64,000 nucleotides of DNA, taken from the NCBI GenBank assembly GCA_964187785.1, contig OZ076409.1, positions 68,016,001-68,080,000 of the forward strand, written 5' to 3'. The stretch is from Amphiscolops sp. MND2022. Its lineage: Eukaryota. Below the pieces are notes generated by a model. It had not been told where the DNA came from and ran no database searches. It worked only from the letters and a program-made list of their open reading frames with translations. Shown here piece after piece: positions 3,901 to 51,270 of the stretch. A program made the translations under genes and the position numbers. Within the stretch, counting starts at the first letter, position 1; each line of letters opens with the position of its first letter.

Positions 3901-6900
3901 GAAAGTTGCAGTGGGCTATTGTTTCGATCAAAAAATGAAGACGCGGCGTTTGCTCCGATAAACGTTGTTTTTTGGAAACTTTGTCAGCAATTTTAGTGCT
4001 GTCTAATTTGTTGAAAATTTACCTGAAGGTATTTTCCTGTAAAGAATTCTGTGAGGTGAAATCGTGTTGGAGTTTCTTGTGATTTTTTTCTAGACATCGA
4101 CGAGTGTGCACGTGGCACTGACCTGTGTGATGATTTTTGTGTGAACACAATTGGTTCCTACGTCTGCTACTGTCTCGATGAATCTCAGCTGCTACTGCAA
4201 GACGAAGTCTCCTGTTCCAGTGAGTACAGAAAATTTTTTCTGCTATCATCTGCTTGGGTCTAGAAGTACGTACCGTAATGTCCGGCGTATAAGAACCAAC
4301 AACCCCCACAATCTACAATTTCACCACCCACATTATAAAATGGGGGGCTTATACGCCGGGCATTACGGCATATCTAATAAAATGTATCTTTTACGCGATG
4401 TCAATTATCGGTCGATTCATAAAACTTTGAGAGTTGCTTCACATTTAGAGCTCCAAACGTTTGTTTCATTTTTTCAAATGCTATGGTGTATGTTAATATT
4501 GATTCTAAATGAAGTGGTTTGTAAAAGAGTAGGCGTTGGGGATATTCTAGTTTTTTTTGCGATAACGAAGTTGTTGAAATGCTGCTGTTGGGTCAAGACA
4601 AAATGACATCTCAATTAACTACGGTATTTGATGCTAGTTGAATTCCTGATTCTATGCTCTAAAATGAAGTGCAACGACTGAAAAAGCGTATGGATTTTCG
4701 TTTAAGAAAAACTTGGTTTGGAATGAGTCCAATTCAGTTAAAATGGTAACTCAGCTTCACCTGCTGCTTGAAACAAAAAATCATTGAACCAACCAGTTCA
4801 CTTCAATTAGTGCCGAAAATTTGAATGTGCTCCATTAAAGATTCAAGTAAATCTTTGTGTCTACGTTTGATAGAATAATGCATCATTGTCTTTTTATCAG
4901 TAACATATGTCAAAACTTTGACTGACAACACATGCAACTTCTGCAAAGTAACAGCTCTGCCTTCAGTTCATTTGATTTCTGGTTGAAAAACTTCAGTCGT
5001 TCTTCAACATAATCTTCAAAATCGTAGCGTCACAAAGGTTCCCGGCGTGATTTTTTTGTAAATGATAATAGAGGGTGATTTTATACAGTGTGTGATTTAA
5101 TTAATGAGAATCAAGACGGCAACGTCTCAAGTCGGGGCGCCCATGTATAGCTCACAAAGTGCTGTCTTATGAATGTATGAAAATGCTGTTTTTGTGATGA
5201 TATTTCCCAGTCTCACAGTGTCGGAAAAGTTTTTCTTTACTGGAATAATGAAAAAACTCCAAAGTGGCACTTTGGTGATAATAAACAATGTCCACTGCCG
5301 AAACGTGCTCTTCTGCAGCCAGCGAAAATGGTTTTTTGATGAGGACGGAAAATCCATGTAGGTTGCATTGAGAACATCTTCACTGGGTGTCCGGACGTTA
5401 CGCCCAATGATTATGCATACTGCCATTTTTGTATATTCAAATATCGAAAATAATACTTACAAAATTTAGCTGTGAAGAAATTACTTTATATCGTCTTGTA
5501 ATGTCTGGTTGGCATAAAAAGTCTACACTTTTTACGTTTGAAAATTCATCTAAAACTTTCTCTTGATCATAAAGGAATCATGGTGATCAATGCGTTAGGA
5601 AAATGTTAGAAAGTAGAAAACATTACCTGACCGATACTTGAAAAAATCTGAATTCATTAAATTGTTAGATGTTTTCTCTATCAAAAATCTGGAGGTTATA
5701 ATTGAATTCATAAGGGCCATATTTTTTTTACTGTGCTAAAACCACAGTGGCGCTGCGTCCTTTTTGAGCATTGCTAGAGAAGCTTGAAGCCCCTCTGAGC
5801 CAAATGAACTGAAAATTAAATCAAAGCTTTCATCGTGCTTGATTGTTAATTCAACTGACAAATGACACTGATGAGAAGCATTAGAAAAGTTGATTAATTA
5901 CCAGAGATTGAAACGATGCTTCAGCTCGCTGTTTCCAATTATACACATCAAAGACTTTTGAATAATACCAAAATATTTCAACCAAATACGAGCTTAATTG
6001 GCTAAAATTTGAGTTCTTCAATGTATCGCCAAATTAAAAACTTTTTTTTACTTCACTGAGCACAAGAAAACCTTCAGTGTATACTCTTCGAAGCATTTTG
6101 CTTCAAAGTATATCATCTTTCATACCTTGGTTCACAACTTAAAATTTGTTATCAACCTCATAACTTACAATCAAAGAACCGACTCAGCTTCTGCTGACTT
6201 GAAGACCCATATACTCGCCTTTTATGGTTGACTTGAACCAACGCCCTTTGTCATTATCAATCATCGACATCTGCTAAAATGGCCGATTACACAAAAGTGC
6301 CGAAAACTCTTACAGTCGACAACATTATGGCTAGAGCTCATACCCGATCGTCTGTCAGGTTAGTGTCATTTTTAATTGTTAACTCTAATGACTAATCTAA
6401 AATCATAATCAAGTTAGTATCAGCCAAGTTTCAATAAGTTTATTTTCTATTTCAAACTGTGCTGCAGAAGTATGATCAGAACTGAGAGTCCGTTGTGGCG
6501 TGATGCAACGTTCAGCAGCCGTATCAAAACAAGCCATGTTGGTATCAAACCAGACGACGCCTTCGCTGATTTGACCTCCCGGAGGTCAAGTAAAGCTAGC
6601 ACCCTGCCAATGGCGACTCCGTCGGATGGCAGAGCTATCTCAAGGTCTGAATCAGCCAAAGCTCCAACTTGCACCCAAAAATCTACAACTGCTACCTCGA
6701 TTACAAAGTCTTCCCAAACTGCCATCGAGAAAAATGATGGTTCAAATGGCTCAGCTCAGGAAAATAAAGAGAAAGAAGTCACAGACGAAGAGTGGATTGA
6801 ACAGTTGGGTAAGAAATTGAAGAAAACAGAGAGAGTTAAGAAAGACCATGTTGATGGAATCCTTGATCATTACAAAGGAGAGCGGACAGAGAAGTTGATA

Positions 6901-9900
6901 AAGCACGGATTAGGTATCAGCTACAGCCCAACTGTAGAGCTCAGTCGAAAAGCATTTTACAAAATTGTGAGGTGAAGCTTAGATTTCTGTGGAGCCTCTT
7001 TTTAAGCGGTGTGAATTTCTCTTCCGGTGAAATTGGCAGATCTGAAATCAATTGTCCAAAATACATATTTTTAGTAGCCAATTATCATATGCCTTGATAG
7101 AATCAAACTTTCGCCATGAATAGCGTCCATTAAATGAAAGTTGAGCTGTAACTGAACTAAAGGTAACTACACTTACAAGAACAAGTTTTTCACTTACGAA
7201 GGTGAGTGGTTTAACGGCGTGAAACATGGCAGAGGCAAAATTACGATGAAGGATGGATCTTTCTATGAAGGGACGTTCCGGAAGGGAGAAATGACAGGCA
7301 GAGGAGTGAAAGTGTGGGAAAACGGCACCAAAACTTACGTGGGTTACTTCAAGCAGGGCAAAATGCACGGTGAAGGAAAAATTATGTCAACAAATGGAGA
7401 CTTTTATTCGGGCGGTTTTGCGGAGAACTTGAGACAAGGGTATGGAGAATCGAAAGACATGGAAGGACTCTATAGGTGAGGGTTTATATTATATATACTT
7501 TTCAAATGAATACGCATTTTATACCTTACAGATTCGGGCAGTTGTAAGTTAGCGTTTTTTTGTGAACAGAGCCCTTTTGCTGATTCATGGAAGCAATTTT
7601 GACACAAAAAATCCATTTTGAGTATCCGAAACTGATTCGACGTTTGGATGAGTAAATTTTGTAACTATCACAATTTCCATATTTGCTTCAAGGGGAATGC
7701 ACGAGAAAGGGCTACGCCAAGGACAAGGCATGTTTATATACGAAGACACTGCGACCTACGTTGGAGATTGGCTGAAAAATAAGCCACATGGCGACGGAGT
7801 CTTCAAGAACAAAGATGGCTTCGTCATAACTGGACAGTTCACGGACGGAAAACCGTCTGTCTGGCCAACAAAGATCGAAATAAACGAAACTGGGCCAATT
7901 AAAGTGTTCAAAGGAGAATATTTTAATCTGTCGTTCCGATATGTGAACCAAAATGGGGAGTCGACACAATGCTACGAAGGAATGCAAATATATGTTTTTC
8001 AGCCACGGAAATTGTGATTTTGTCAAAAATATTTTATAGAAGGTACTCAAAAATAAATCATTATTAGCTCTACCACAGAAACCTATATTTAACCCTATAT
8101 CTAACTATAATTTTGAATTGACCTTTTACCAACTTTTTCAAAATACTGTGTTCCTTAACAGGTGACGTCTAGAAAGCAAATTTGAAAAAAGATCACTTCT
8201 TTTGTGAGATTTGCATTTCTCATTCAGGCTTCAAATGCAAAATGACTGGTTTCTTCAAGAAACCATCTCTGCCGAAGTCTAAGAGAAACAACCTTCCCGA
8301 TATGGTCAAAATTGAGGAGAACCTCCAAATTGTCAAAACACCCTTTTTCAAAGCAATCTCATACCCTATCTGCAACTTTGCCAACTATGTGCACTCTCTA
8401 CATTACCCCTACAACCTTGTTGACGATGAGTCATTGAGGATGAAAAATGAACCTTTGCAAAATGCTTTCGATGAAATCGTTTCTCTGAAGTATTTTTTGA
8501 GTTCATTGGAGAACTCGGATACCCAAATGTTGATGGATAAGGGATTGAAGTTTCCTGAAGACGCTGAACATGAAAGCAACAAGTGGCCCCTGCCCATTGT
8601 AGACGAGTACGTTGTTGATACTACTGGAAGTGGTCATTTTTCAAAAATTGCGTTGCCCGATGCCGATCGTCCTGAAATGCCATACGAACCCTTCGTCATA
8701 GATTCATATCTGCAGGAATATGAGAAAAACAAGAGGAAACATGGTGTCTATTTCGGGGAGAAGCCCAAAGATGTCACCTATGATGCCTTAGGTTGGATCA
8801 TTATTCTACGGTCTTTTTACACAATGTTTGGTTTTGTATTTTTTGGCATTTCTTGTAAAAGAGACCTTCACTGACTGTAAAAAAAAATTGAGCAAGGGAG
8901 GTTTTTCTCCGGAACGCTGACTCGCAGTTGAGCATGTAAATGTATACGTCGTTGAATATATTTTTGTTAGAATAGATGTCAGTTGAGTATTGTATAACGT
9001 GATACATGTTGGTTCATTTTGAGCACGATATGAAAATCAGTTTTTCAGACACTTACTCTGTGGAATAGTGCCACACTGAGCATCAAATACGAATTCGACT
9101 CATAAATCTAATGGTGTTTCAAAAATTTATAGTATTAAATTGCGTTTTTAATGAAGCTTGAGATTTACGAATCAGATGACTTACTCCTTTCAAGTTGGCC
9201 ATTTTCAAGAAAATTTTCTGGAAAAATGAACGATATCGTCAGACAATTCCTTGAAAAATCACGCTAGGTTGCCAAGGTAATATTTTGATACCATGATATT
9301 TTTTCAGGCCGAGCAATCGTGGACGACTCCGATAAAGAGGAGGAAGACGAAGAATCGATATATCCAGGATTGACTGTTGGAGATTTGGAACTTCCTGTTG
9401 AAAAACAGCTGATCAAAATTCTGTTTAACGGCTATGCTCGAAAGGGCCTGTACTGTATAAAACTGGAAGACATAGCCCCCGAGTCAGTGTATACATGGTT
9501 CTCGTTACCGAGACCCGAGCCTGCTTACATCCAAGTAAAAGTGGTCGAATATGCCAAGCGAGTCAAGTCCAAACACAGATCTAGTTCTAGAGGGAGTGGT
9601 CGCCAACGTACAGACGAGGCTGCCCCAACTGAACAGTCGAATACTAATATATAAACCACAAATTTCTAAAAGAGGACAGTGGGTTCTCAGATCTACTGTA
9701 TTTATCTGGACCTTAAGTAGATTTCCATATCTAAAGTTATCTATTAACAACTTTTTATTGCGAGAAGCAAAATTTCAAAGATTCCACTCGTTTTCAGGCG
9801 AGTTTTGAACCAAACAAGTTACGCCATTTTGTTGAAAATCAACAGAAAAGATATGTATAACTTTTTGTCATAACCCTGAACCATTGACATATTTGCGGTT

Positions 9901-12900: not shown

Positions 12901-15900
12901 TACACGGGCAGTGGCATCCTGTGCGAGGGTTCGTTTTTGAAATTCAGTCTTGATTGTTAAAACAATGCGTATAAAAATATTTAACAAGATGGGAACGTCT
13001 AATGTCTGCTCCCTGCTTAAAGCTCAAGAAGCACAGTCTCGTAGTGCTCAGGGTGGCTTTCAGGAAATTTTCATAACTTCCAGAGAGTTGAAAAATATCC
13101 AAATGCGTCCTCGAAAAACGCTTTCATCGTGAATAAATCATCAAAAAAACATTTTCTTCACACGACGAGCGCTCTAAACAGCTAGTGAGGTAGATATTAA
13201 TGATAACAGTGAGCAGTTATTATCTTAAAAAACAGGGTTGCTCTGTTTTAAAACGGGGTGTTTTTAAACGGTTTTAAAACAAGGCCATTTCTTAGTAATG
13301 TTTTAAAACAGTTGTGTGTATCATAGACAATTGTAAGTGCGCAACTTTGTTCAGGCTCAGGTACTTCTCGGCAACATTCCAGCACGATTAGGCCAACTTA
13401 TTGAAGAGTTTATTGCTATGGCGCCATCATCTGCTTGAAAGGCTGTTCTCGTCCATGGGATACGTGCATTCCGATATTCGGAATCGACTGGATCCGGAAA
13501 GAGTCCGGAAACGTGCATTTTGCATGAGATTGTTAAATAAAAAAAAAGTTCTTTTTCGGAATAAAGTTTTTCAATCTTCGAATGTGTTTTAAAACGGTTT
13601 TTAAACGTTTAAAACGTTTTAAACGTATAAAAAGACTTTTATACGTTTTTAAAGCAACCCTGTTAAAAAATATTCCCAAAGAAGTGGGTTAAAAAGGTGA
13701 TTATCACTCATGTCTTTTACTGAGTAGTAAATATATTTGTTCAAGATTTTAACCCATTGTGTTTTCATTTCTGGATCTTGGTTGTTTCGCAGAAAAAGGT
13801 TATCCCGAGAAATCTGCTTCGAGATTATGAAATGCATTTTATTTCGTCAAACCTACCTGAGTGATGAAGATACTTGATTGAAACGTTTTGGATGTTTTTC
13901 CAGTTGTAAAAATGTTTTCAAGCCCCGACTTGTCGATTTCGAAAATCAATGTCTTTCGTTTGTTCTAAAGTGGCTTGTTTTTGAGAAAGAACACCTGTAC
14001 GCTTTTGCGTGCAATAAAAATTCTCCAACGCGCACATGTAGATTGATTTTTTGTGCATTTGTTTTATTGATAGAACTCATCAAAATTTAACGAGATTCTC
14101 AATAAAAATTGACTGTAGGATGGCGTCAAATGTATTCCGTTTGGAAGAAGTAGTCTCATTTGGTTTTCTAAGTCACCATCAAATGAAGTTGAACATTGCT
14201 TGACATTGTTTGATTTTTGTGTGTCAGATTTAGACGAATGTTCAACTGACACTTCGGGTTGTGAGTACTCATGCTCCAACACTGTGGGCTCGTTTACCTG
14301 CGAGTGTCCCTCGAACCTTACTCTGGCCTCCAATGGGCTAGAATGTGTCTCACGTAAATGATTAACTATTCAATCACTTAGTAATAGTTATAACAATGCA
14401 ACCATGTATATTTTAGAGTCAATTCATATCACTTTGAAGTCGTGTAGAGAGATCATAGAAATAATAGTTCAAAAACCGTCTTCAGATGAAAATGATATAT
14501 ATATGTTTTATAGCTGTATGTTTTATTGACCCTAATCAAACGCTTCTATTTTTGCATTCTAACAAAAGAAAAATCAATGTTTCAACTATATACTGTATTG
14601 AAGATAACAATAGTAGTTCGTCCAGGAGTTGAAAGTTGATTTTCATAACACAAATTCATCTATAGCTTGCTAGAATTCTTCACATTGGCCTTTCGTGGCC
14701 CCATATGCGCTCCGAAATAACCGTTCAGCCTAGCTGGTGTGTGAAAATATCAATCTCATCGTTGGCACAAAATTCAAGCTAAAAAATGTTTTTACGTCAA
14801 TCGATGTCTTTGTCTAATCATACGTTTAAGTTTATCCGTTTTAAGTACAGAGCGTTCATGGCAATAGCGCTGTTTCACACTCCATGTCAATCCCTTTTTC
14901 TTCGAGTCTCCCCTTCTCTGAAAAATTCTACGCATGTATTATTGCGCTTAAAAGGCCATTCAATCGAACCCGATCATGTATAGCATCGTATATTTCAAAT
15001 TTATTCACAATTGCCACTCATTGGTATTTGACGCATCCTTCATTCTACTGTATTTACGACCGTTCTCTGATTAGGTGTCCATATTGTGACCACGTCGATG
15101 ATCATTTGACCATGAAGCATTGTTTAAGCAATAAATTTTATCGCTCCTTGAAAATGCAAGCTTCGATCTTTGAAGGAGCGTTTGCCACGTCATTTTAAAA
15201 GAATGGACACGTCATTTTACTGCATAAGCGTTTAGTTTCTCTTCCAATTGGATGTTTTTGTTTCCATATTCACATGTTTTTGTTCATCAAAGCATGAAAA
15301 AAATATCGTCGCTCTCATAGATGAACAAAAGCTTTTGCCGTGAATACAAAAACTCAATTATTACTCCTTGGATCAATGAATAGGTTCTTTATTCGATTGA
15401 GCATGTCTAATCTTTTTTCCAAACATTACCTCATCTCAAAAAGGACAGCCTCATTTGAAGAACTCAAAATTTAGCGAATCAATATTCATGGCTCAAAAAA
15501 TCATGTACAAACGATGTTTAGTTCCAACTTGAAATGTATTAGCCAAGCTAAGTGATGTTTTCAATTGAGGAGTTCAGTTCCGTGAGAACAACTGAAGTTG
15601 ACACGAAAATTTAAGTTTTTGTCTCCCATTAAAAAGGAGCGATGAACAAGTTTGACTATAGTAATGGACTATATACGTAGCATGATCAAATATCATTTCA
15701 TCAATATTAGAATTTAATTTCATCAGACTCAAATACCATATATGTACTTCTAATAATGTAGATTTGATTCTAATTACAATTGATCTTTCATTTGTTTTCT
15801 AAACTAACTGTTTGAATTTTTTTGTTTCAGCCGTGAGGCCGCCAGATATGATGAAACACGCTGGCACTGAGCAAATGAGGCCTTTCTGGACAGTAGCTTT

Positions 15901-22105: not shown

Positions 22106-22959
22106 CTCCAATAATGTTTCATCTGGATTTTTCAATATTATTCAAGATTTGGATGCTTTGCATTCAGATTCAAGATGTGGATTTAGGGTTTGCAATTGCT
22201 TTGCAGAAATCAAAAATGAAAATTCTGGAATTTCACGTATACAGTGCAAGCTCGTTATCTGCAAATCGAAGAAATGGAAATTTTGGAATTCCTGGGCTTG
22301 CCGAGCGTGATTTTACCTACTAAATTTTTTGTTGGCGCTTTCATTAGAAAAATGTTCCATTTTTTCAACATTAACACTGTTATTTGATTTTTTGCTTCTA
22401 TTTCTAGTGAAATGAAATACTCCGTTTTCCATTTTTTTCCAATTTTTTTCATTGAAATTTTCGACGTTGAAAATTTGATGATGATAATTGCATCTCAAGA
22501 ACAGACCGTTTTTTAAGAAAAATTGCCTTTTTGGTATTTTGATGTCCTTTTGTTGCTGATAAATCCGCTTTCAGTTGTATAAAGTATGATTGTCTTACGG
22601 ATAAAATCACTGTCGAGGATAGAAGCAAGATGCTACTTGTAATGTCAGTTAGTGTTTTATGCCGCTCTTCTATAAGGAGTGCATCGAGTCCTTCGGCTAT
22701 ATTATTTCATATATGATGCCATATCGACCTGCCATAAGCAGTCTTCATATTCGCATTAGTGTATACCCCGCAGTTACTATTAAGATTCGCAGTTTTGTTC
22801 AGAGTTTGGGTCCTACTGAAACTCGGCGACAATTGAGAGGGGATTCAAATTGCAGTTGGCTTAAAATTTTTCCGGTTTGATATATTTTTCTAATAGAAAC
22901 TGTAGTGTACTTTTACACAATTTTAGTGATGTAACTTTTGATTTTCAGGTAGTTCATGC

Positions 22960-25900
22960 ATGCTGGGCTATCTTTCTGTTCCCAGGGCCTCTTTGAACCT
23001 TGCCTCCTCCTCATCCAAAAACCAGTTTGTAAAAAAGAGGACGAAATGGCTGGACAGCCATCATCGTTTTGTTCTTTTTGTTCTTTGTTTACACTTGATG
23101 CCTCTCACCTTAGCTGCCAAAAAGACAACAGATGACAACAAGAAGTCTTGTGATCATTGTAGAGAATTAGTTGGCAAATTTATTGACGAGTTCAAACTCA
23201 CAGACAGGCACGATTTCCTCATATGATAACATTTTATTGGAATGAAAGTTAAATACAATGTGAATCAGTGATTTTTGTGTGCAAATCCCAAGGCACATTG
23301 TCGAAAAGCACTTTGCGATTCGGTGTTGTATTTTACATATAAATTAGTTCTCCACTTGCCGAAGTGTCCAAATTTATCTCTAAGGGACTTACACTGGGTT
23401 GGAGCTCTGCAGCTTGCAGCGTACACCTCAACACGGGCTACATATTTAAATCATCGCCCTTTTTGGTAGAAAGCAAGGGAAGAAAAAGACAAATAATTTT
23501 TTGAAAATGCGTATCGTTTCGCATTTCGTCATCAATTCAAATCACACTTGTTCCATCTTTATTATTATGATACTGACTGTGCTCTAAAAGATTCATTAAA
23601 ATGAAAGGTGTAACAACGGTAGTGAATAAATTGCGAAAGTGGTCGCTGGATCAAAGATCGTTATCTGAAAAGCTATATTGGATCAAATAGTGACGCAATA
23701 ACGAACAACTCATTAGTGCATGTGTGGCGTTGCTAATTTGTCGAAACTCAAGTTTAGACGGTACCTTCTAAACAACTTTGAGTCCTAATTATTCAGTTAC
23801 ACGTTTTTATTTTGCTATAAATATTGCAAAAAAAGTTTTTTCGACATAAGAGAATTCACCAAAGTTCTAGTTTTTTTTTCATTTGAAAACAGTGAGGGAT
23901 GAAATAGCCATAGCTATTGCTGCAGCGAACTAACGAAAATAGCGATTTTAAACTGCACATGCTCGTGAATAGCGGATCTAACCTCTGGTCAAAATGCTTT
24001 TATTCCTTTCCGACCGGAAGCGTAAAAGCATTTTCCAAACTGTAAATCACTATTGCGGACATGAATTTTCACCGTTTCAATTTTCATATTCGGCAATGTA
24101 TAGCGTTTCATTGAAGACATGTACTCTTCAGGTAAATTTCGAATTGATGAGCGCCCAGAGATCAATGAAAAGTAAATTTCTTTGAATTGGACGATAATTT
24201 AATATTTGCCGAAGGAACTGTAGATCGACCCTCCGTCGACCAGCTAGGATAGAGGCCTCTGTAAATGTCATAGTCTAAGAGTAAGGACTATTTTATCCTT
24301 GACAAATTTTCTGGAGCAACTAATCGTGTAACTAATCCTTTTCTGACGATTTGTAAAAGTGTGATACTTATTTTATAAATTAGCGCCAGCCAATGTCCAC
24401 TAGCCAATGTTTCAATAGGACAGATACTGACACCTTAAGGTGGGCTCTGCGGCTTGTAGCGTATTGACACCTGAGGAACTTCACGGGCAAATGCAAGTTG
24501 CTTTATCATTTCACCCTGAGGTTTTGAGACACACGGTCCCCTTTCTTTCTCGATTCTAAAGTAATACGTACTCTAAGTTTCAACAGTATTACATCATCAT
24601 ATGAGGAAACTACGACAGGGGACTATTTGAGGGAGGGGACACTGACTGGGAAATCAAAAATTTGAAAGATTACAAGAAGAGCGAAGTGCGATTTATTGAA
24701 ATTACAGAGAAAATATATAAATGTAAAGTTGATCACGTCACACGATTACTTGAAGAGGTGAGTGAGTTTCCTTTTCATACTGTGTTGTATTACAATGAGA
24801 GCCACCTTATTTTTTGAATGCTCAGTTGAAGAACCTGCTGCGTTTTTGTCTATATAAACTTTCGATAAACTATATAAACTTTTCCTATGCTAATTTTAGT
24901 CGACGCTGGATGAAATTTAATAGAGCGCGAATTTTTAGTGGTTTTTCATCGTTTTCTCAACTGGATCGAAATGATCACAATAGTTCTACCAAAAGTTCTA
25001 CAGAAAAACATCTTCGGATTATCATAAAGAAAACGTTCAAAATGTCCTTTTTTATTTTAATGTTTTCAGTTATAAAGCTTTTTTGAGCCCAAAAGAGCCC
25101 CAATTTGGTAACATTTTTTTTCAAAAAGTCCCTGAGTATTTTTGAGAGACTTTCCTTTTTTGGATCCTAAAGGGAGGCACCGACATGTGCCGTTTTTGGC
25201 TTTTTAATAGTTTTTTGTTTTCTTCAAAACATAAGGTCGTCTGGATAATACACTGTAATTGTCCACGAGTTGTTTCAACTTTATTCATTCCTAGCACGGA
25301 ATTTCCATGCACCGTTATTCGACAGTAACTTTTTGTTTTTACCTGCACGAAATTTCAGGTTGAAGAAAACCTCGAAGATTTTTGGCGCGACCACTGGCAG
25401 CACGTGGGCGACTCAAACGAACTTGACAGCTACTTATGTGTGTCTTTGAAGAAGGTCTGTTGTCCTTATGGCTTCTTCGGTGCTGAGTGCTCGCCCTGTC
25501 AGAGCGGGGAAGAAGCCACGGCCGGGTGTTCTGGACATGGATCATGCAATGGAAATGGCACTAGGGGCGGCACCGGTTGGTTTCACAGCTCTTTGAAAAT
25601 CAGTTTGGTTGCATCAGTTCTGGGAAAACGTGGTGCGGTTTTGTATATTTGACTCGTATTGCGAAAATCTTACAAGTTGCATCTCAGTTTCATCTGTGTG
25701 CGCTGAAATTGTTTTTTTTTTAAATCTGAAACTCTTTTCTTGATAAATAGATAAAAACATCAACTTAGAATTGAGATGAACAAAATTTTGAGCATTCATG
25801 AATTTGACAGTTTTTCCTCAATTTCAAATATTGTTCAGGAAAATGCAAATGTGACGAAGAGTATCGTGGGTCGTTCTGTGAGGAGTGTAAGAAGGGCTAC

Positions 25901-26794
25901 CAACGCGAGGAAGAGAACCAAACATGTGTCGACATCGATGAGTGTGCCCAGAAAGATAAGCCCAAGTAAGTCATCTCTCATAACCTTACCAATAATCATG
26001 AGTTGATTTGAACACTTCAAATCGAAAAGCTGGTTTGAGTATTATGGTAACTGAGCATGTTTTTGAATGAATATCCTTGAAACTATTGCCTCTGGGAATG
26101 TACCTGCTTCTCTCGCTTTCAGTGCTTCTAGTTCAATTTAATGTCTTTATCCGAATGCACGAGTAAAATTGGTAAGGGTGCGAATAAACAATTTTAATTG
26201 ACTGACAACGACACGCTCGGGGTCGATTCCGTAATCACTACTGTATTCTCGCCATTCATGAAAACTACTTTAATTTTTAGTCTGTGTGAAGACGGGAAGT
26301 ACTGCGACAACAACCCCGGTTACTACTCTTGCAGAAAATGCCACGAAGCCTGCAACAACCTCACTTGCAACGGACCTGAACCCGAGAACTGCACAGGCGA
26401 CTCGTGTGCCGAGGGCTACTTAAAACTACTGGACGGTGACTCGGTTATCGGGTGCAAGAAAGACGAGGAAGAGGAAGAAGAGGAAAATTTAGGTGAGGGT
26501 GATGATTTAAATGCAAACGTTTCTTCAGATGGTGCAAATGGTACTGATACTTCAGTACCTGTTGAAGTAATCAATACAGAAGTTGGTTCTTCTGGTGAGA
26601 GCGTAAATGGTAAAGAGGTAGGCGAGGATAAAGGAAACGGGAATGGGCCATCGCATGAGGAAGCTATAACTGAAGCTACTGCCGACGATCATGGTAATGA
26701 GAATGATGATACTGTTGTGTTGAATTTGGAAGACAGTTTGGAAGATGTAGAAGCAATATCCAACCCCGAAAGACCCAACAATATTGAACTCTGA
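22960..26794 (+). CDS. CRELD: Cysteine-rich with EGF-like domains protein, soluble ER-type isoform (acidic tail ending NIEL)
   Basis: Exons 22960-23207, 24619-24757, 25359-25575, 25839-25965, 26281-26794. Hydrophobic signal, CDHC motif, FEGGDTDWE..YKKSEVRFIEI (WE domain), LCV..LKKVCCP.G.FG..C, CSGHGSCNGNGTRGGTGKCKC, DIDEC, CHEAC. Confidence 0.9.
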
Positions 26795-27642: not shown

Positions 27643-29565
27643 CAGGGGTGTTCAAAAATTGATTTTGAAGAAAACAATCAATTATTTCAAAACAATCAAT
27701 TAAATTGATATTGCAACCGTAACAATCAATTAATTGCAATTAATTGGTATAAACTAACATATCCCAGACACTAGTTTTTCGTCCCAAAATTTATTGTTTA
27801 TTTTGAGAAAAAGTTGCTCTTCGAGGTGAATGGGTAGTAGTCGTTGACGATGATCGTCGAACGCAAATGTTGCGCTACTGAAGAAACGTTCAATGATGTT
27901 CGATGTTGGAAGTAGAAAGTTTGTGTTCATAAACTCTTCTTTCTTGGTGGAACCCAGTCTGCGCTTTTTAATGATATCCATTGCAAAATCTTCCTTGTCT
28001 GATTCCAAAGGTGCGTCTGTTGGTGTCTGCAACAACAGATTTGAAGAGACAGTTCTCTCTTCAATGGTCAAATTTGAAAATTCCTTGTCTTGAATTTTCA
28101 CCACAGCGCGTTCAAAAGCAGAAGAGTGCACAATCTTAGCATCTGCAGCAATGTATCCGGACATGTCTGGATATTGTTCAATAACTGAATCAAAAACAGC
28201 TCTTACTTCTGCCATTGTTACATCATCTCTTTGTAGAGCTTTCTGAACGCCATTAAACTTTGCCAATTTTTTTTCCAACTCGGCAATATCTGCATTCTCT
28301 CTTGGTGTTGGAATGAAATCAATGATGAGCTTCTCACGTGAAAATTCAGGCTGGGATAAAATTTCCCGAAATTTTCCATACCGTTCCACCATAGCGTAGG
28401 TACTTGACCAGCGCGTATCGTTTCTCTGAACTGGTCTGAGATCTGTGTGCAAACGTAACATTAAGTTGTTGATCTTTTCAAGAATAGCGCATTGAGGTTT
28501 CAAATGTTCTTTCACGGCAAGATTAAATCTATGTGACGCGCACCCAATCAAGGGGAGATTGCACTTGGTCGATAGTGCCTTATTGACTGATACGTTATCA
28601 CCAATTATTGCTATGACATTTTCAAAAGTCTTACCATATACACTGAGTACCCAACTAATGAATTCATAATGTTCATCCGCGCCAAACTCAGTTTCACAAA
28701 ACATTGGCGAGAAAGCAAGCATCACGCTTTCGTAGCCTCCAACTTTCCCCAGGTCAGGATAGGTGGCAAATACTCCGACAAAATGCACAGACGCCTTTGT
28801 CCACCCGTCAATGACCAAAGCAATTTTCTCTGGTAAAATATGAGAAATCTTCTTCTCAACCTCCTTGGTAAGAATACCCATATATTTTCGCAAGGTATTT
28901 TCGGAAATACTCTCCAGCCTTATGTACTCCCGGATAGTTGTATCCTCCACAAAACTAAAGGGTCTCATTCCATCACAGATAATTCTTATCCAACCGTAAA
29001 TATTCATCCCTTTTCTTGAAGTTTCATCCACGGCAAATGCGTTAATAACACTTGGTGTATTGTTTACGGCGTTCGCAGATTCTTCTGGATGTTGTCGCTT
29101 TACATGATTAAGCAAATTACTCCATCCAGTGTTTTTCTTTTGCACGAGAACTTTTCCACATTTACATTTCCATGTACCAGCACTAATGTCGATCTGCTTG
29201 AAATATTTCGAGCACGTATCTTTTGGTAAAACTGGCATGGTTAAATTGTCATGCATGAAAAATAACCTGAAAGTAAAGTGAAAGTGACTATAATAAAGTA
29301 AACACAGCTGTGACGTATTATTTGCTCAGAAGTAGGCGGCAGCGTCACTACTCACTACATGTACTCACTCACTGCGTACTGTACACCACTGCCCTGGAAA
29401 CAAATTAATGCCGTGGCAAACAAAACAAAATGGAGGCAAAATATAATTGCAATTAATTGGTCCAAAACAATCAATTAGTTGGTATTGCAATGTACGAAAA
29501 ATCAATTAATTTAATTGCAATTAATTGCAATTAATTTAATTGCAATGTAATTTTGAACACCCCTG
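27643..29565 (-). mobile_element. Near-intact hAT DNA transposon (1923 bp)
   Basis: 15-bp perfect TIR CAGGGGTGTTCAAAA, perfect 8-bp TSD GTCAGGTG, subterminal AATCAATTAATTGCAATT-type repeats. Confidence 0.95.
27754..29256 (-). CDS. hAT transposase (BED finger, DDE, dimerisation domain)
   Basis: 500-aa uninterrupted ORF with WKCKC..NLLNHV..H, VIDGWT, IGDN, CASHRFNLAV, TRWSS and TSNIIERFFS. Confidence 0.92.
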   Translation of the reverse strand: MHDNLTMPVLPKDTCSKYFKQIDISAGTWKCKCGKVLVQKKNTGWSNLLNHVKRQHPEESANAVNNTPSVINAFAVDETSRKGMNIYGWIRIICDGMRPFSFVEDTTIREYIRLESISENTLRKYMGILTKEVEKKISHILPEKIALVIDGWTKASVHFVGVFATYPDLGKVGGYESVMLAFSPMFCETEFGADEHYEFISWVLSVYGKTFENVIAIIGDNVSVNKALSTKCNLPLIGCASHRFNLAVKEHLKPQCAILEKINNLMLRLHTDLRPVQRNDTRWSSTYAMVERYGKFREILSQPEFSREKLIIDFIPTPRENADIAELEKKLAKFNGVQKALQRDDVTMAEVRAVFDSVIEQYPDMSGYIAADAKIVHSSAFERAVVKIQDKEFSNLTIEERTVSSNLLLQTPTDAPLESDKEDFAMDIIKKRRLGSTKKEEFMNTNFLLPTSNIIERFFSSATFAFDDHRQRLLPIHLEEQLFLKINNKFWDEKLVSGIC

Positions 29566-35624: not shown

Positions 35625-35914
35625 GGTATTGTAAAACGGTCTGGAAAAAATCATCACTTAAATATGAATGAATATGGTGCATTTGCAGCTTTGATTGGGC
35701 GCTGACTTGGCCTGTTCAATTGGCCTGAATTTCTGAGCTTGTTCAATAATCCTATGGGGTGGAAAGTTGAATTGATTTTCGAAATCCGCCTATGACAGTC
35801 CTTGTACGGCTCGGCTCTCTTGGTGTTTCGGGTGAAAGTTTTGATGTGTAGGCCTTGCTGTGATTTTTTTATCGCCAACGTAGCTTCTACTGGTGATATG
35901 CCTTTTCAGTTGAA

Positions 35915-38900
35915 ATGACGAGTGACTCTTCTGGAGGTGGTATAGGTGGCCCAGTTGGTGATATTCTGATTTACCCCGAAGCAGAGGCGTACGTCACTTC
36001 TTTCTCAAAGGAGCCGTTTACTATCAAAGATATTGGATCGCCAAAGTTAGTATGAAGAGCGAGTCGCTTTGACTCAATGGCTTTAATGTGATAAACTCAC
36101 TGTAAATGTGGCAAAATGTGAAGCTATTTCGTTCGAGGGCACGTAAACCTGACTTCGTAGCTATTTTTGAAGAACAATTACCGTACAAACCATTTTGCAA
36201 ATATTTAGGAATACGCTTGAACAGTAGTCTGAAATTTAAGAGCATTTTGATTACGTTGTGAAAGTCACGGACTGTTGTTACGAGCGCGTCATTTATATCC
36301 ACAGAAATGTCTTAATGTTCTACGGTTCTTTTGTCAAGTCTGTAATTTGCTATTTACTATTAGTTTATAAGACAGCTGCAAAAAGTAATTTGAAAAAAAA
36401 TTGAAAGCGCACACAGACGAATCTCGAGGGCATTTTTAAAGCGAAATTTGAAATAAACTCTTACGGTTTTTGAGCAGTAGATTGTAGCGCTTGGTAAAGA
36501 TTTTTTTAGCAATGTCGTCACGAAGCGCCCATGTCATATATTTCGAAATTGAACACACGAACGGATGTGTTCCCGACTTGGTGGAATTCGGAAGATCTTT
36601 TTTGATTCAATGACATGTAAGTTTATTGAAGATCTATATGCCGGGTTTAGTTCTCGGGGCGATGTCTAGAAGAGCACTAAAGCTCATACCTGCTCTTTTT
36701 TGTATGTTTTAAATTAGAAATGAATTGACGGTTTGTATTATTTTATACTTTTGTATAATATGAAACTAACTGTTTTTCCTTATACAGTGGAATCCGCCTT
36801 ATTCGTATCGCTAGGGACCGAATAAAATAGTACGAATAGTGAGAAATACGAATTCACCGAATGATATTACTTTGATCGTCACGAAATGGGGGTCTCAAAT
36901 CCATACGAATTAGACGATGATCCGAATTATCCGGATACGAATTAACCGGAGTTGACTGTAACATCCAATCCAAGTTAATGAACTTTTCTTTCGCAAATAT
37001 TTCGTTTGATTTATTTTCTTTGCCTCGTTTCTCCTACTGGGGCTCTTATGACGCTGTAGTCAATAAGTAAGTAAATGTTCATGCACCGTTCATTTTGGAA
37101 ATCGTATTCCAAATTGTTTTGTTGAAAAGTTTTACCCAATGTGTGTTAAATGAGCAAAATCAAAAAGTTGAATTTGGCATGAATTATCTGGCATCCAGGT
37201 ATGTATGGATGTCACGAAAGTTGCGTCAGAAAAGCGTTGGAAAGAATTCGGAAGTCTTCATAATAGTTTGGTTTTCTCACTTGACTGAGAATGATCAATT
37301 ATCGCCCGCCACTCGTTATGATTGAAATATTCGCTAAGAAATCGAACGTTATTCACTCTGATCGGTGTTCTTTCAGATGGCTGCAATATCACGAATACGT
37401 GGAGAAGTTGAGTCAACAGGCAGTTTTGTCTGCGACCACTAAACAAAACGAATTTGTCATGGAGTTACTCGTTGAACATGAAAAGGTTGCTAATATTTAT
37501 CTAGTCTCTCGAAACTAATGAATACTATTTCACAGACAAGCTTCCTCTGTAATATGGACACTTACAACATTTGGTTCCATGGCATTGTCATGTGATATCA
37601 ATACTCACGGTCTTTTTAGTCGGCGCTTTCGTAGTTTGATAAGCTGTTGCTTAGTAACTTGTAACTTCTACTGCCACTTGGCAGAGATCCGATTTTTTAG
37701 AATGGGTTTTTTGTTGGTTCCAGTTGGGAAAAAAGTGGTTTTCGAATCTTATGCGTATCCCTTCGGGTATTTTTGGCACTGTGAAATTGAAATTTTAACA
37801 ATAGTGTCCTTTTGCATGCTTAAAAAACTTTACTCTGTTGAACCTTGAGTGAGACGCCGACTTGACCCGTTCCCGGCTTGTTTCATTTAGAAACATACAT
37901 TTTGAACGCTGAAATGAAATTCGAAAGTTGCAGTAATTTATGGGACATAAAGCGTACAGGGGACGCCCTTTAATTCTCGTTGCTCTTAAGAAATTTTTGA
38001 TCCTTATTAATTTTTGTTGAAACCTCTTGAATGCCTCTATGATCCTAACCAAACTTCACTGCTTTTCAAGTGATAGAAAGGGACTTTTTTGAAACGTATA
38101 TTCTAACTAAACTAGCTAATTCTAACCCATTAACTAAACTAGTGGAAGCTAATATGCCGAATACAGAACCTTCCGTGTTGAGAAAATAACAGTTTTGTGT
38201 TGAAGTTTCCATTCTCTGTCTTTAGCATCCATTTGGTCCTATTTTTGTTCGAGAAAACGGTCAGTTGTCAACGTGTATAGTTAGTCGAAACTTTTATTCT
38301 AAGGTCAGCTCTTGGCGAAACTATTTTATGAACCTGTTGACCTTCAAAACTTGAAAGGCATGTTTTGCACCCTTTTGATGACTTTTAGCTAGGGGTCCTC
38401 ATCGCAGATGTCATCAGTGTGGAATTGTGGAGGGACAAAGTGTTCCATGCGTACATTGCGCGCATGGAGAAGTCACAGTTCAACCCTAAGAGCACTCTTC
38501 CTCTCTACATGACTCTGTACCACGAAGCGTGTGTCATGAATCTGTTGGAGACAGTATTGTATCACAGTGTAAGCTCCTAAATTGATCATACTAGTCCAGG
38601 TTGACTGCCGAGAACTTTCAGAATTGTTGAAATGCTATTATCAAAGATTTGTCCGTGAACTTGAGATGGAGTTTTTTACTGACCTTTTTTTCTACGTACC
38701 AATTGGTCAACCGCCATTTTTAGGGTGTGCACGAATTTCATCAACTCTAAAAGTCTCGTGTAATAAAGATCCCATGCATTTGGACAATATATCTACAATT
38801 TTCTCGATATGATGTTATTTACTCTCTAAAAAGTTGTTCTCAGGCTGAAAATCAGCATTAGGAAGCATTTCCAGAGTTTTGAAGCATGATTCATTGACAG

Positions 38901-41900
38901 CTATAAGTAAGGACTGCTTATTAGGACGCGATGGAATGTGCGGCAGAAAGCGGAGGGTTGCTGGACTTAGCTGACTACTGCCAAAGGCAACTTGTCTTTC
39001 TTTCCACATGTTCTTCCGCTTCGTCCTCTTCAGAAATTCTCGATTCACTTTTTGATGCCAAGTTATGCTCCCAGGGTGAATCGGAATCTGATTTGGAGGT
39101 TTGTATAAGCAATAATTTAATCTTTTTTACGTTGCAATCAGTAGCTTCCATTAATTAAAGCGATTGTGTTTATTTGATAGCAACATTTTTTCCGAAAGCT
39201 ATTCTCCTTTTATGAGTAATTTATATATGATATAATTGAGTCTTGTTCGACATTCAATTTCAATCCGGTTTTTCAATTCATGTTTTTTAAACCCAATTGC
39301 CCAATTGTTTGGAAATTTTAGTCATGACTTACCAATATTTTATGAAACTAGATGATTTGTTGAATGGTTTCAGTACCTGTCGAGACAAGCAACCAAAATC
39401 AGATTCGAGGCTGCCCTGAAGTGCATTAGTGTTGTTCGATACTTCACCGACTATTTAAATTCGTGAGTTCGCTTTCACATCTGCCTATTTCTATGGGGCA
39501 CTAATTACAGCGGAAGTGTCATTCAATGGTTAAGAGGGATCTGTAGGTCCGCTACACTTTGCGATATTGCCATTCGAGGCAAGGTTCCATCGATACTAGA
39601 AGGTCCTAATTAAAGGAGGCTGACGATTTTCACCGTCATAACATTTGACACACAGCAAGAAGCAACACTAGAGATTTGACAATTTTGAAATTAGATTTTT
39701 TTTTGTATTTTTGATTTTTTTTGTAATATCGCTTGAGCAAGGTTGTGTTTCAGTCTTCCAATCAGTGTGGTGACGCGGCTGTTCAAAACAAATGATATGC
39801 CATTGTTACTTGTTGAGTTAGTGCAATCATCTCCCTGGATGAAACGAGATGCCAAATCAGGTTGGATTTTTTTCGTGAAAAAGTTTCATCGCGTTGCAAA
39901 ACTGTTTCGACAGTTTGTATGAGCCAGACAGTCATTTCCACGAGTTTGAAAAAAGTTGGATCTGGACTTGTAAATAGTTTGACAACAACACATAAACCCA
40001 CAGTGACTTCCCTTGTCTATTCAGTATTTTCGATGTCATCCAATGAGTTCTTTTCATTATTGAAAAACAAATTTAAATTTTTAGATGAAGTTTCGAAATA
40101 CAGTGGATCCCGGATATAAGAAACTCGCTTATAAGAAATGCCCGCTTATAGTCAATGCGTATCTTGGCCCCGACTGGAAATTTCATTCCTTTCAAAACCC
40201 GGATATAAGAAAGTTCGATTATAAGAAACACCACTGTCGTTCCCCTGACGTTGATTATATCCGGGATCCATTGTAGTATTAAAAGGTGTCATGACTTTCA
40301 GGAAAGATTCTGAAGCTGATAGATCAGAAGTGGGAAGTAATTCCCCCAAGTGACATTCACAAGCTGACTAACATTGAGGGTCAGATTTGGTTGTCTCTGT
40401 ACCAGTTTGTGTTCAACCCAGAAACCAACAGAAAATACGAAATGACCAATCACTCCAAAGAGCAGTTTGCAAAGGTTAGTAGTGCCCGTGATGTTCGCCA
40501 TTTACGAAACTCGGATATGTGGCCAAGATAGTGAGCGTTTACATTAGGTATGAATGACGCCTTTACATTTGAACCCCCATGACTAGTAGTGTGCCACTTT
40601 CGAAAATTTTCCCTTCAATTTTTCCTTCTCAATTAGTAAAACACGTTTTCCGAGCCTGAAGCTTCCTCTTTTAGGTTTTTCGGGGGAAATGTGCGTCTTT
40701 TTCGATGGTATTTTTTTCAAGAAATATTTTTTGATGCTTGAGACGTTCTCGTCTTGTTTGAATTCATTTACAGATGCTCAGATTCAAAAACTTGTCCTGA
40801 ATTTCAGTTGATCAGTCACTTGAATGATATAGTGATTGACCAAATTCCTGCTCTCGGTCAATTGAAGGAATTCCTTCTCCGGATGCAGATGCAAAACTTT
40901 CCAGACCAGCTCAGCTCGCAGCCAATCATCGAACAGCTGCCCGAAATCAGAGACAGAATGGAAAGCGCTAATTCAGGCAAATGGGCCTCAATCGCCAAAT
41001 ACCAAGTTACACACTATTTCACACCCTCGGAAAACGACCTTAAGAAAATGGCTTCGAAGTTAGTTTTTAGTCGGCGCTTTTCTTAAGAAAAGAGCCCGAC
41101 TATTACAGTCACTCGTTTTTTTTTTTATTTAAGACAGACTCGAAGCGACGAACGTTAAAATTAACGTTCAACTACTAAATAAGTACTAAACTACTGGACC
41201 GCTAAAGGCAAACGGGGAGCGCATTCATTTACTTTTTCAACGTTACATACAAGCCCGGACGGGACTAAAGTTTCGTACCCCCCCCCCCCCCTTTCGATTT
41301 TTTTCGGCGCTGTGAGATTTTTTTTTCGAATTTTTTTTAATGTCCCCAAAGGGTCCCCCCTTTGAGTTTTTTGTTATTTTGCTACAGAATGCGTGTTTAT
41401 AAATCAAAAAGGGTCCCCCCTTTTACATTTTTCGGCACTGTGCGACATTTTCCGAAAGAAATTTTTTTTTCGAAAATTTCAAGTTTTTTTTCCAAAAAAA
41501 TGTTTTGCGCTTTTTGAGCCTTACATATAGCGCCGACTTGAGGCGTTCTCGTCTTGTTCACTTTAGATCTGTCTGTAATTAGGTTTAATGTGATGATCGA
41601 ATGTTTTCATCTTGAAATGAAGTGTTTTTATTTTTCTAGTCAGCGTATTTCGTAAGAAAACGTGCCCGGCGATCACAGTGGCTAGTTTTTTCTCCAGACT
41701 ACCAACTGTCTGAATGGTCTAATTTTTACATTGATCATTTCACATTTTAACAAAAATTGCAAAGCTGCAGTATACCGAAACTGGGACAGAGGACGCTTTG
41801 CTCTCATGTATTCTTTCAGTCAGAAAAAAGTTTTGTTTGAGCCCAAAAAATCCTTGTCAATATTTCGGGCACCGAGATTTTTTACAGAATACCTTGAGCA

Positions 41901-42472
41901 TATTTCAAAAAAGTTTTGACTGTTGAGCATTGAGATGCCGGCTTGACATTCCCGTTTGTTTTTGATATTTTCCTGAACATTCTGATTCGCTCGGTGACTG
42001 AGAAAGGAAAAAGCTGAGGGAACTACCAGAAAGATAGTTTGAATCATCCCTTTTCAGTAGCCATGAAATTTTCAATCACTGGTTGTACCAGGTAGCTAGC
42101 TAATTCATTGAAAATTGGACCATTTACTGTTTCAGTTTTGCTTCTCTGTATGACTCAGAGGCTCTGGACGTGATTCTCCCAGGGGTTCCCAAATGTTTCT
42201 TGTGTGGTCAGGACGCCACCAAGCGGTGCAGTAAATGCAAAATCATCTGGTACTGCTCTCGGTTGGTATACTTTAATCATCTTGCCGCTTGTTTAAAATC
42301 ACTGTTTAGTGCTTTCAATGTGGCGTCATCAGCATTGTGGTTATACACATAATATTAAATACGAAAATGTGGAACTTTTCATGCTTACTAAGCAATTATT
42401 TTTGTTTCCAGGGAATGTCAAGTTTCTGACTGGAAAGAACACAAAACCAAATGTGCCTCAATGGCGAAGTAA
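35915..42472 (+). CDS. ZMYND10: Zinc finger MYND domain-containing protein 10 (dynein arm assembly factor)
   Basis: Ten GT-AG exons: 35915-36045, 37377-37485, 38389-38568, 38925-39098, 39374-39462, 39754-39860, 40302-40474, 40808-41058, 42136-42261, 42412-42472. Motifs EAEAYV..DIGSPKW..HEYVEKL..QA, LYHEA..NLLETVLYH, LLVELV..SPW, EGQIWL, DQIPAL and the MYND finger CFLC..KRCSKC..WYCSRECQ..DWKEHK..C. Confidence 0.95.
36785..36958. mobile_element. Tigger/pogo-type MITE
   Basis: Imperfect TIR CAGT..TCCG..ATTCGTATC at both ends, TA flanks. Confidence 0.7.
37613..37883 (+). mobile_element. Family B element (short copy)
   Basis: Same TTTTAGTCGGCGC start and CGCCGACTTG..CCGTTCCCGGCTTGTTT end. Confidence 0.65.
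40101..40273. mobile_element. Tigger/pogo-type MITE
   Basis: TIR CAGTGGATCCCGGATATAA / TTATATCCGGGATCCATTG, TA TSD. Confidence 0.8.
41064..41558 (+). mobile_element. Family B element inserted 5 nt after a ZMYND10 splice donor
   Basis: TTTTTAGTCGGCGC .. GCGCCGACTTGAGGCGTTCTCGTCTTGTT. Confidence 0.7.
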
Positions 42473-45687: not shown

Positions 45688-46671
45688 CTAAAAATGAAGC
45701 TATTATAGTTTCTTGGGCCAAATGGTTTAATTAGGCACCTTAAATATCTCAGTGCCGAATTGGTTCGAATTTTATCGGCTCGAAATGACAACCCTATCAA
45801 AACCAACTTACATGCACTTCTTTTGTGACAAAAGCGACTGAGAGACTTTTTAAACCTAACTTGCTGAGGTCAATTAGCAACAGCTAAAATTTTGATTTAA
45901 ACAGTCAAACTTTATACCGATTTTCGAGTGTTTGAACATTAAAAAGTCAATTAAAAAAATGTTTCCACCCTGTTCTGGCATTTGTGAACTAGGACGCTAG
46001 GGGTGCCAGTTTTGCTGTTTTTGAGACCATTTCAATTTAAAATAAAAACGTGATCAACCTAAGCAAACTGCAAAAAACAGCACATTGAACTCCTATTTAA
46101 TAAAGGTGAACGTCTGGATTAAGAATTTGTTGAGAAACAAGCACCGAATCATGGATTTCTACAGAAACTGTTTACAGCTACAATTGTGGGAAATCTACGA
46201 TAGACTAAGTGTGTTAGAAATGTCGAGCTAGATTCTTTCAAGTGTTTGAAAGAAAAAGCATACAATGAAAAGTGAACTAACCTGCCTGACTCAAGCCGCG
46301 TAACAGTGTAAATGAATTCTCAACGAGAGTGAAATTGGACAACAACAATTGATTGACGTGAATTTAAATTAGAATGCGCCTTTTCGGTCATTTCGCAGAA
46401 CTGCTGTCAATTTCACTGAAAGATACTACGTTTCATAGAATCATGTTACGTCATCACCATATATGGTACGACTCACGTCATGGACTTCTTGGAATTTCTA
46501 TGCATTTCAAGGAATCTGGCGCTACTAGTATTTTGTATGTAAATTAACCTGTTTATAGCCTTTATATACGGGGTGCTCAACCTATTATGCATCAATTCAG
46601 ATCAAATAATATTCAATACAATATTCACTTCTACAATCATCTTCAATCGCAATCCTGCTCATAATCCTAGA

Positions 46672-46685
46672 GGTTATGGGCCCAG
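46672..46685 (+). promoter_or_regulatory. Primer binding site of the half-tRNA-iMet type
   Basis: GGTTATGGGCCCAG directly abuts the 5' LTR; this is the PBS type known from Drosophila copia. Confidence 0.8.
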
Positions 46686-46757
46686 TCTAACAACTCTCAG
46701 ACGTGCTCAACTTGTGGAAGACGTGCCTGGCTCAATCTAGACGAACTAGCTTCCAAG

Positions 46758-50795: not shown

Positions 50796-51270
50796 ACTAA
50801 CCTGCCTGACTCAAGCCGCGTAACAGTGTAAATGAATTCTCAACGAGAGTGAAATTGGACAACAACAATTGATTGACGTGAACTTAAATTAGAATGCGCC
50901 TTTTCGGTCATTTCGCAGAACTGCTGTCAATTTCACTGAAAGATACTACGTTTCATAGAATCATGTTACGTCATCACCATATATGGTACGACTCACGTCA
51001 TGGACTTCTTGGAATTTCTATGCATTTCAAGGAATCTGGCGCTACTAGTATTTTGTATGTAAATTAACCTGTTTATAGCCTTTATATACGGGGTGCTCAA
51101 CCTATTATGCATCAATTCAGATCAAATAGTATTCAATACAATATTCACTTCTACAATCATCTTCAATCGCAATCCTGCTCATAATCCTAGAAAGTGTGCG
51201 TAATTTTTTGGTACCTTACTGTAGACTAGATGTAGTAGAATACAAGATTTTTAATTCGGGAACTACCTCA

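Follow-up and report, generated by a model that had tools for sequence, protein, structure and literature searches.

A predicted GC-AG intron with paired ends in an acoel CRELD gene, probably derived from an old DNA transposon

The stretch analysed here (the window) comprises 64,000 nucleotides of the 1.07 Gb genome of the acoel Amphiscolops sp. MND2022 (G000:C1:68016001-68080000), and its forward strand holds a CRELD gene in five exons, with 416 open codons that can be aligned along the ortholog P0003. A protein search with exon 3 gave CRELD2-A of the acoel Convolutriloba macropyga as its sole match (51% identity), and exon 2 is found at a single place in the genome. Introns 2 to 4 are plain GT-AG introns with T-rich acceptors. 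Pfam recognised no domain in the CRELD exons or in P0001, and no CRELD DNA of a relative came from protein searching with exon 2 or from a metagenome scan. The gene and its first intron are laid out as follows.

22950..23207, plus strand: CRELD exon, first coding part, ending CDHCRELVGKFIDEFKLTD-R (candidate ATG at 22959, the start codon being a guess)
23203..23208, plus strand: upstream copy of the direct repeat GACAGG, its last G being intron position +1
23208..24618, plus strand: predicted GC-AG intron of 1,411 nt in phase 2, the best junction against ortholog P0003
23208..23216, plus strand: donor GCACGATTT, one base short of the GCACGCAT(T) start common to five other paired-end introns
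23214..23227, plus strand: left arm of a perfect 14-bp inverted repeat
23310..23467, no strand assigned: old dispersed repeat in the intron, 71-84% identical to other copies and unrelated to the intron ends
24002..24105, no strand assigned: second old dispersed repeat, a fragment 81-88% identical to other copies
24207..24554, no strand assigned: third old repeat, 68-75% identical to other copies, with a core in common with 23310-23467
24596..24609, plus strand: right arm, at the site where the pyrimidine tract is expected
24610..24619, plus strand: tail CTACGACAG|G; the downstream GACAGG copy at 24614-24619 provides the AG
24619..24757, plus strand: CRELD exon 2 (GLFEGGDTDWE...), single copy
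25359..25575, plus strand: CRELD exon 3, flanked by ordinary GT-AG introns
25839..25965, plus strand: CRELD exon 4
26281..26794, plus strand: CRELD last coding exon, stop included

Elsewhere in the window there is a MORN-repeat gene (PF02493) at 6400-9700, a 430-nt hAT-type MITE with CAGGGTTGCT ends and an 8-bp duplication at 13232-13664, and an intron-rich gene at about 35900-42470, presumably resembling ZMYND10, whose junctions, read by eye, are plain GT-AG. On the minus strand at 27643-29565, 850 nt after the CRELD stop, lies an intact-looking hAT-type element with ends CAGGGGTGTTCAAAA (CAGGGGTG), a perfect 8-bp duplication GTCAGGTG and a 523-codon frame with a BED finger. At about 46200-51000 there is an LTR element of Copia type, which has direct terminal repeats and a frame of 1,374 codons with gag, integrase and RT.

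A previous, sequence-only reading placed the first CRELD intron between GACAG|GCACGA at 23207/23208 and CTACGACAG|GGGAC at 24618/24619, and these coordinates are borne out, although not as the only junction that restores the WE-domain reading: 18 GT/GC-AG or AT-AC pairs keep the frame. Six of these were scored by alignment to the ortholog, and the GC-AG junction 23208-24618 came out on top with 253, against 242 for an AT-AC junction at 23213-24623 and at most 211 for GT-AG. Across the predicted junction the Convolutriloba ortholog reads TDRGLYEGGDTDWE, or in a longer reading FIDEFKATDRGLYEGGDTDWE. GC donors as such are not unusual in this genome, being found in 11 of 203 dynein introns, but the acceptor is indeed without a polypyrimidine tract, as had been claimed: it is purine-rich, with 11 purines in positions -18 to -4, where the maximum among the 203 dynein introns is 10.

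The perfect 14-bp inverted repeat reported previously is present at 23214-23227 and 24596-24609, but it is sub-terminal rather than at the very ends, starting 6 nt from the intron's 5' end and stopping 9 nt from its 3' end. When real intron ends of this genome are cross-paired, none of the 41,412 combinations reaches 13 or 14 perfect base pairs (the maximum is 12), and the stem formed by the intron's own ends is significant against such cross-pairs (p = 0.0005) and appears in both the MFE and the centroid structure when the 1,451-nt region is folded; inverted repeats of 12-14 bp, at whatever distance, are common within the window. The outermost bases of the intron ends do not mirror each other. 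GACAG is duplicated at the junctions, yet the direct repeat extends to 6 nt, GACAGG, and the register may be 5, 6 or 8 bp. If GACAG is taken as the duplication, the element is left with asymmetric ends of 6 versus 4 nt, so the length of the duplication cannot be fixed at the 5 bp previously proposed; the ACAGG register gives symmetric 5-nt ends, CACGA and CTACG, which are four transitions apart, and the 8-bp register gives CAGACAGG and ACGACAGG. Junction repeats of at least 6 nt also occur in 12 of 188 GT dynein introns, and exon-side repeats of at least 5 nt in 3 of 188. I rejected the three interior repeats as parts of an element, as their copies elsewhere do not have such ends.

Related copies of the intron ends, which the sequence-only reading led one to look for, were not found in DNA searches of the genome, and both ends appear single-copy. 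The 14-mer arm has 16 exact matches in the genome where 17-25 are expected by chance, and none of the 14 other matches has a partner arm within 1.5 kb (at most 2 mismatches). The 13-mer of the left end has 8 matches, all unrelated; searches with each end, which skip common words, gave only an interior repeat as another match. Across 464 kb, the CRELD intron is the only one with a strict 5-bp xxAGG architecture. What it has in common with other introns is a start motif of 8-9 nt, found in five of them. Transib elements carry CAC at both termini and make 5-bp duplications (available part of PMC1131882); here the left end CACGA with ACAGG fits this description and the right end CTACG does not. 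As for hAT termini, the left one could begin with CAG at 23205, but a matching right terminus is missing, and no CAGGCAC element with an 8-bp duplication was seen in about 1 Mb of sequence (overlaps included) or in the 5 loci inspected out of 147 described below. As no genomic copies of its ends were found in these searches, the CRELD intron is not a young Introner: it would work as Introners do, yet it has no family and is not filed as a member.

As a survey of other introns, I mapped the dynein heavy-chain genes, which gave 215 junctions; 12 were dropped, the site chosen in each having a score more than 9 short of that of the best unconstrained one, and 203 kept. These comprise 188 GT-AG, 11 GC-AG and 3 GG-AG introns and 1 doubtful GA-AG intron, the doubtful calls among the non-GT introns kept being D4 23580, D4 25239 and D7 27181. 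The stem formed by each intron's own ends was scored against all cross-pairs, and at p <= 0.05 stems were found in 8 of 188 GT introns, which is chance level, in 4 of 11 GC introns and in 3 of 3 GG introns. All three other GCACG donors in this set have stems (p = 0.0003, 0.0003 and 0.006), while six GTACG donors have none (scores 10-20). Compared with GT introns by Fisher's test, the excess gives 4e-8 for the GG and GCACG classes, which were picked, and 1e-5 for all 15 non-GT introns; one GG and one GCACG case came from a second batch, after the idea had been noted. Four of the six paired-end cases lie in a single gene, and the rate of 3% is therefore not to be extended to the whole genome. 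Within GT introns, stem strength is uncorrelated with the T content of the acceptor or the match to U1. G-U outnumber A-C mismatches by 17 to 10, which is not significant (p = 0.12) and does not demonstrate selection at the RNA level.

One GG and one GCATG intron coincide in position and phase with a plain GT-AG intron of a paralog, which makes some of these positions old; a paralog-shared position is also seen in 47 of 199 GT introns. Such sharing fits a conversion of old introns as well as a later repair to GT. Two GT-AG dynein introns, L081:4148-6229 and L082:6193-6802, have 12-bp end stems and weak acceptors (p = 0.004 and 0.012), and may be repaired members of the paired class. At L110:5866-6620 (G000:C7 near 65116610, minus strand), the dynein junction MNP|GY is best read as CT-AG, one base away from a GC donor, possibly an assembly slip or an odd donor.

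The introns that the CRELD intron most resembles form a class with GC donors. Its members start with GCACGCAT, the CRELD intron with GCACG-AT; six unrelated introns start with GCACG(C)AT, and four end with ATGTGTG. A pattern derived from two dynein members has 4 matches in the genome and 0 in the control: the two source introns, an intron in a UBE2N-like gene that splits the UQ_con domain (1-77 | 80-139), and L154, which has open frames on both sides and no Pfam match. The right arm reads GTGTG in all four matches, with a G-U pair facing the G at donor position +5; a CpG lost from the free side, or selection that favours the G at +5, would each account for this pair. The genome-wide patterns used in this study were built from known members and returned only tens of matches. 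In one member the ends are symmetric and the duplication (CGTCAAGG / CGTGAAGG) is nearly perfect at 7/8 or 5/6, being 6 bp long if the terminal G-C pair is counted as element. Outside the start that they have in common, the arms match nothing but their own partners, and the interiors are mutually unrelated. The start GCACGCAT matches U1 at +1, +3, +5, +7 and +8, and selection on the donor could account for part of the similarity among the members.

No free element or transposase was found for the GCACG class, which leaves its transposon origin to be inferred only. A relaxed pattern returned 27 loci, and none of the seven inspected is an element with its own duplication of at least 5 bp. The 147 loci with CAGGCACG...CGTGCCTG were rejected as a MITE, most of them being internal matches in larger repeats; the CAGGCACG loci inspected share flanks, one family looking like the frame of an LTR element, and L159 is a long fold-back. 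A 318-bp CACACATTG family was rejected as a source for its shared flanks (2 of 14 copies inspected).

The origin of the GG-AG introns is clearer. All three dynein cases start with CAG|GGATG and carry (C/T)(A/T)TCCCT 12-17 nt before the end, and no GT junction comes near them in score. The GG pattern has 35 matches in the genome versus 1 in the control, falling in 22 distinct places. Twenty of these were inspected: 10 are candidate introns flanked by open frames (among them the known dynein case), 3 are free copies of a MITE, 2 are chance matches in apparent retroelement frames and 5 are ambiguous. The MITE has the ends CAGGGATGA...TCATCCCTG, of which CAGGGATGA presumably matches the terminal repeat of Ac/Ds, and an 8-bp duplication that is matched at 8/8 positions in free copy L141, 7/8 in L170 and 6/8 in L169; the copies are 74-87% alike. 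A G at the third position and 8-bp duplications mark hAT elements (PMC1131882, in part), and the dispersed copies show both CAG termini and the 8-bp duplication. Eight hAT-type elements were found in the sequence examined, where they are common; the BED-finger element of the window (CAGGGGTG) is different from the MITE of the GG class with its CAGGGATGA ends.

One copy provides a comparison with an empty site. The insert at L166, which shares 85% identity with free copy L141, breaks up a reading frame that is gapless in the relative P0155, which may be genomic DNA or a transcript; P0155 reads IMT-NN-YP, and L166 after its predicted splicing IMT-SN-YP. The same read-through into the element is seen in another record, P0154. 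When the 8 nt that follow the right terminus are compared with the 8 nt preceding the exonic CAG in 12 GG introns, 34 of 96 positions agree (permutation p = 0.004). Domain continuity supports the predicted splicing in the dynein, cadherin and PF06032 genes; Pfam recognised the flanks of only L146, L162 and L151 among 11 candidate loci. The first three bases of the MITE, CAG, would stay in the exon and replace the host triplet just past the duplicated target, and splicing would take place at CAG|GG, with the host AG just beyond the duplicated target as acceptor. As both ends of the MITE read CAGGGATGA, insertion in either orientation would work. The GG-AG introns, predicted to be spliced, trace to this hAT-like MITE.

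The U1 snRNA genes were searched as well, with at least 23 matches (L179-L201, on G000 C3, C7, C8, C12 and C13) whose 5' ends vary: canonical ATACTTACCTG, ATACTAACCTG in 3 copies, ATACTTACCTT in 6 copies, ATACTTACTTG and ATTCTTACCTG. GTTAG donors, which rank second in frequency (24 of 188), would be paired by the ATACTAACCTG type, and the U1 set is possibly matched to subclasses of donors. Among the 23 matches listed (42 of 17,560 candidates scored) there is no dedicated U1 for GG or GCACG donors. In three different U1 variants, L185, L192 and L199, one and the same foreign sequence adjoins at ACCTG on the 5' side, which looks like the insertion of an element, presumably Dada-U1-like, at this position of U1 genes.

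These observations suggest that the CRELD insert is probably an old DNA-transposon insertion in an exon, one that the ordinary spliceosome would take out as a GC-AG intron. A non-autonomous element starting with (G)CACG would have inserted beside an exonic AG|G, its end supplying the donor and the duplicated target the acceptor, which would leave the length of the mRNA unchanged. The element family would then have become extinct and the interior of the intron turned over. A transposon origin with a donor at the element end and an AG from the target copy, as previously proposed, is still the best reading, although the duplication need not be 5 bp long and no related ends were found; it has gained support, because there are other paired-end introns in the genome and because a MITE was caught forming such an intron.

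An alternative is that the intron is an ordinary, older one whose donor weakened and whose hairpin evolved under selection for splicing, with no transposon involved. The CRELD ends have no family, the arms differ between members and match only their own 5' ends, two introns with stems or near-stems stand at GT-AG positions of paralogs, and junction repeats of at least 6 nt are found in 12 of 188 GT introns, all of which would agree with this. I nevertheless consider it unlikely, as six unrelated introns share the start GCACG(C)AT and four the end ATGTGTG, and there is a link between the sister GG class and a MITE that has 8-bp duplications. The shared positions are explained just as well by a repair of GG to GT in the paralog, and a stepwise origin of 14 perfect pairs would be less economical than their inheritance from an element.

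Somewhat less likely still is an insert that is not precisely spliceosomal, either removed by imprecise, pairing-triggered SOS excision or part of a dead allele. Paired terminal repeats do trigger SOS splicing (bioRxiv 2025.02.14.638102, in part). However, SOS sites seldom coincide with GU-AG and indels are left behind, and the Tc1 repeats tested were 54 nt long rather than 14, with the length needed left open in that source (same preprint, in part), while the CRELD ends are an exact G..AG with an exonic AG at a conserved motif; the gene is single-copy and otherwise intact, and the insert is old. Two further readings have very little probability. The intron could be of the minor AT-AC type, 23213-24623, with the product TDRHVFEGG, which keeps frame and length and has in ATTTCCTC what I take to be a resemblance to the U12 donor consensus; yet its score of 242 versus 253 is the lower one when aligned to the ortholog, which has RGL, nothing like a U12 branch box can be seen ahead of 24623, and GCACG donors give the top alignments in dynein and UBE2N. 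The other, to which I give as little credit, is a young Introner of an active family with the same terminal repeat and a 5-bp duplication. The perfect 14-bp repeat and the symmetric ACAGG register with its CAC left end, as in Transib (PMC1131882, in part), would suit it; neither end has copies, though common words were filtered in the search, the interior repeats are 12-32% diverged from their relatives, and the right end is CTACG and not GTG. That the inverted repeat arose by coincidence in an ordinary GC-AG intron is the least credible of all, even with very many introns scanned and 12-14 bp inverted repeats common in the window, given the 0 of 41,412 cross-pairs and the stems in 3 of 3 other GCACG introns, which were found without looking for stems.

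The stem of the CRELD intron would join a weak donor to an acceptor without a tract, which may explain its persistence. I would go further only tentatively, and with more doubt than confidence: GG-AG and GCACG-AG introns in conserved single-copy genes might need the end-to-end stem for splicing, the stem replacing a strong donor and the missing tract. Such introns would then be natural intermediates through which exonic transposons, rescued by pairing, become plain GT-AG introns, and paralog pairs would show both states at one position. The sources of new animal introns are still poorly documented, and this genome appears to hold three stages side by side: free MITEs, a copy in an exon whose frame is uninterrupted in a relative, and old introns, as in CRELD, that have kept paired ends around an interior that has turned over. 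The paired-end introns are direct substrates for testing whether terminal pairing aids the spliceosome. Their old members would be missed by Introner screens that rely on families, and gene finders limited to GT and GC donors will break the genes with GG introns.

The open-access literature searched contains no report of such introns in acoels. In Introners the element end is the donor and a copy of the duplicated target supplies the AG (Gozashti et al. 2022, PMC9860276; 2025, PMC12130899; review PMC11282704; all in part), and, as proposed for CRELD, the length of the mRNA is unchanged and GC donors are known; however, Introners come as families of similar introns, and the CRELD intron has no similar copy. 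The main text of PMC12130899 does not contain the word 'hAT', and acoel names are absent from that paper and from 12 of its 14 supplements. The MITE-derived introns described for Fritillaria borealis and Amoebophrya, in the parts of the sources available, likewise have inverted and direct repeats at their ends and tolerate non-canonical sites, but there most introns are non-canonical, with AG-AC/AT or highly varied ends, whereas in the acoel GT-AG accounts for 188 of the 203 dynein introns, the AG at the 3' side is retained and there are U1 genes. In SOS splicing, transposon ends pair in the pre-mRNA, and the authors speculate that this may help elements on their way to introns (bioRxiv 2025.02.14.638102, in part); that process is independent of the spliceosome and imprecise, in contrast to the exact G..AG ends of the acoel introns. 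The copepod Eurytemora affinis has GA and GG donors, with an obligate exonic AG and an A at +3, that are thought to be recent gains (PMC5714493, in part). The acoel GG class resembles these donors in both respects, but the available part of that paper describes no inverted repeat or source element, whereas in the acoel a MITE's terminal repeat forms the GG donor, which offers a source for donors that are very rare and, in that part of the copepod paper, unexplained. Finally, a hAT element turned intron is known from maize, where Ds is spliced (Giroux 1994, cited in PMC3443670, in part); that is a single laboratory case, whereas the acoel introns form a fixed class in conserved genes, with the GG donor inside the repeat.
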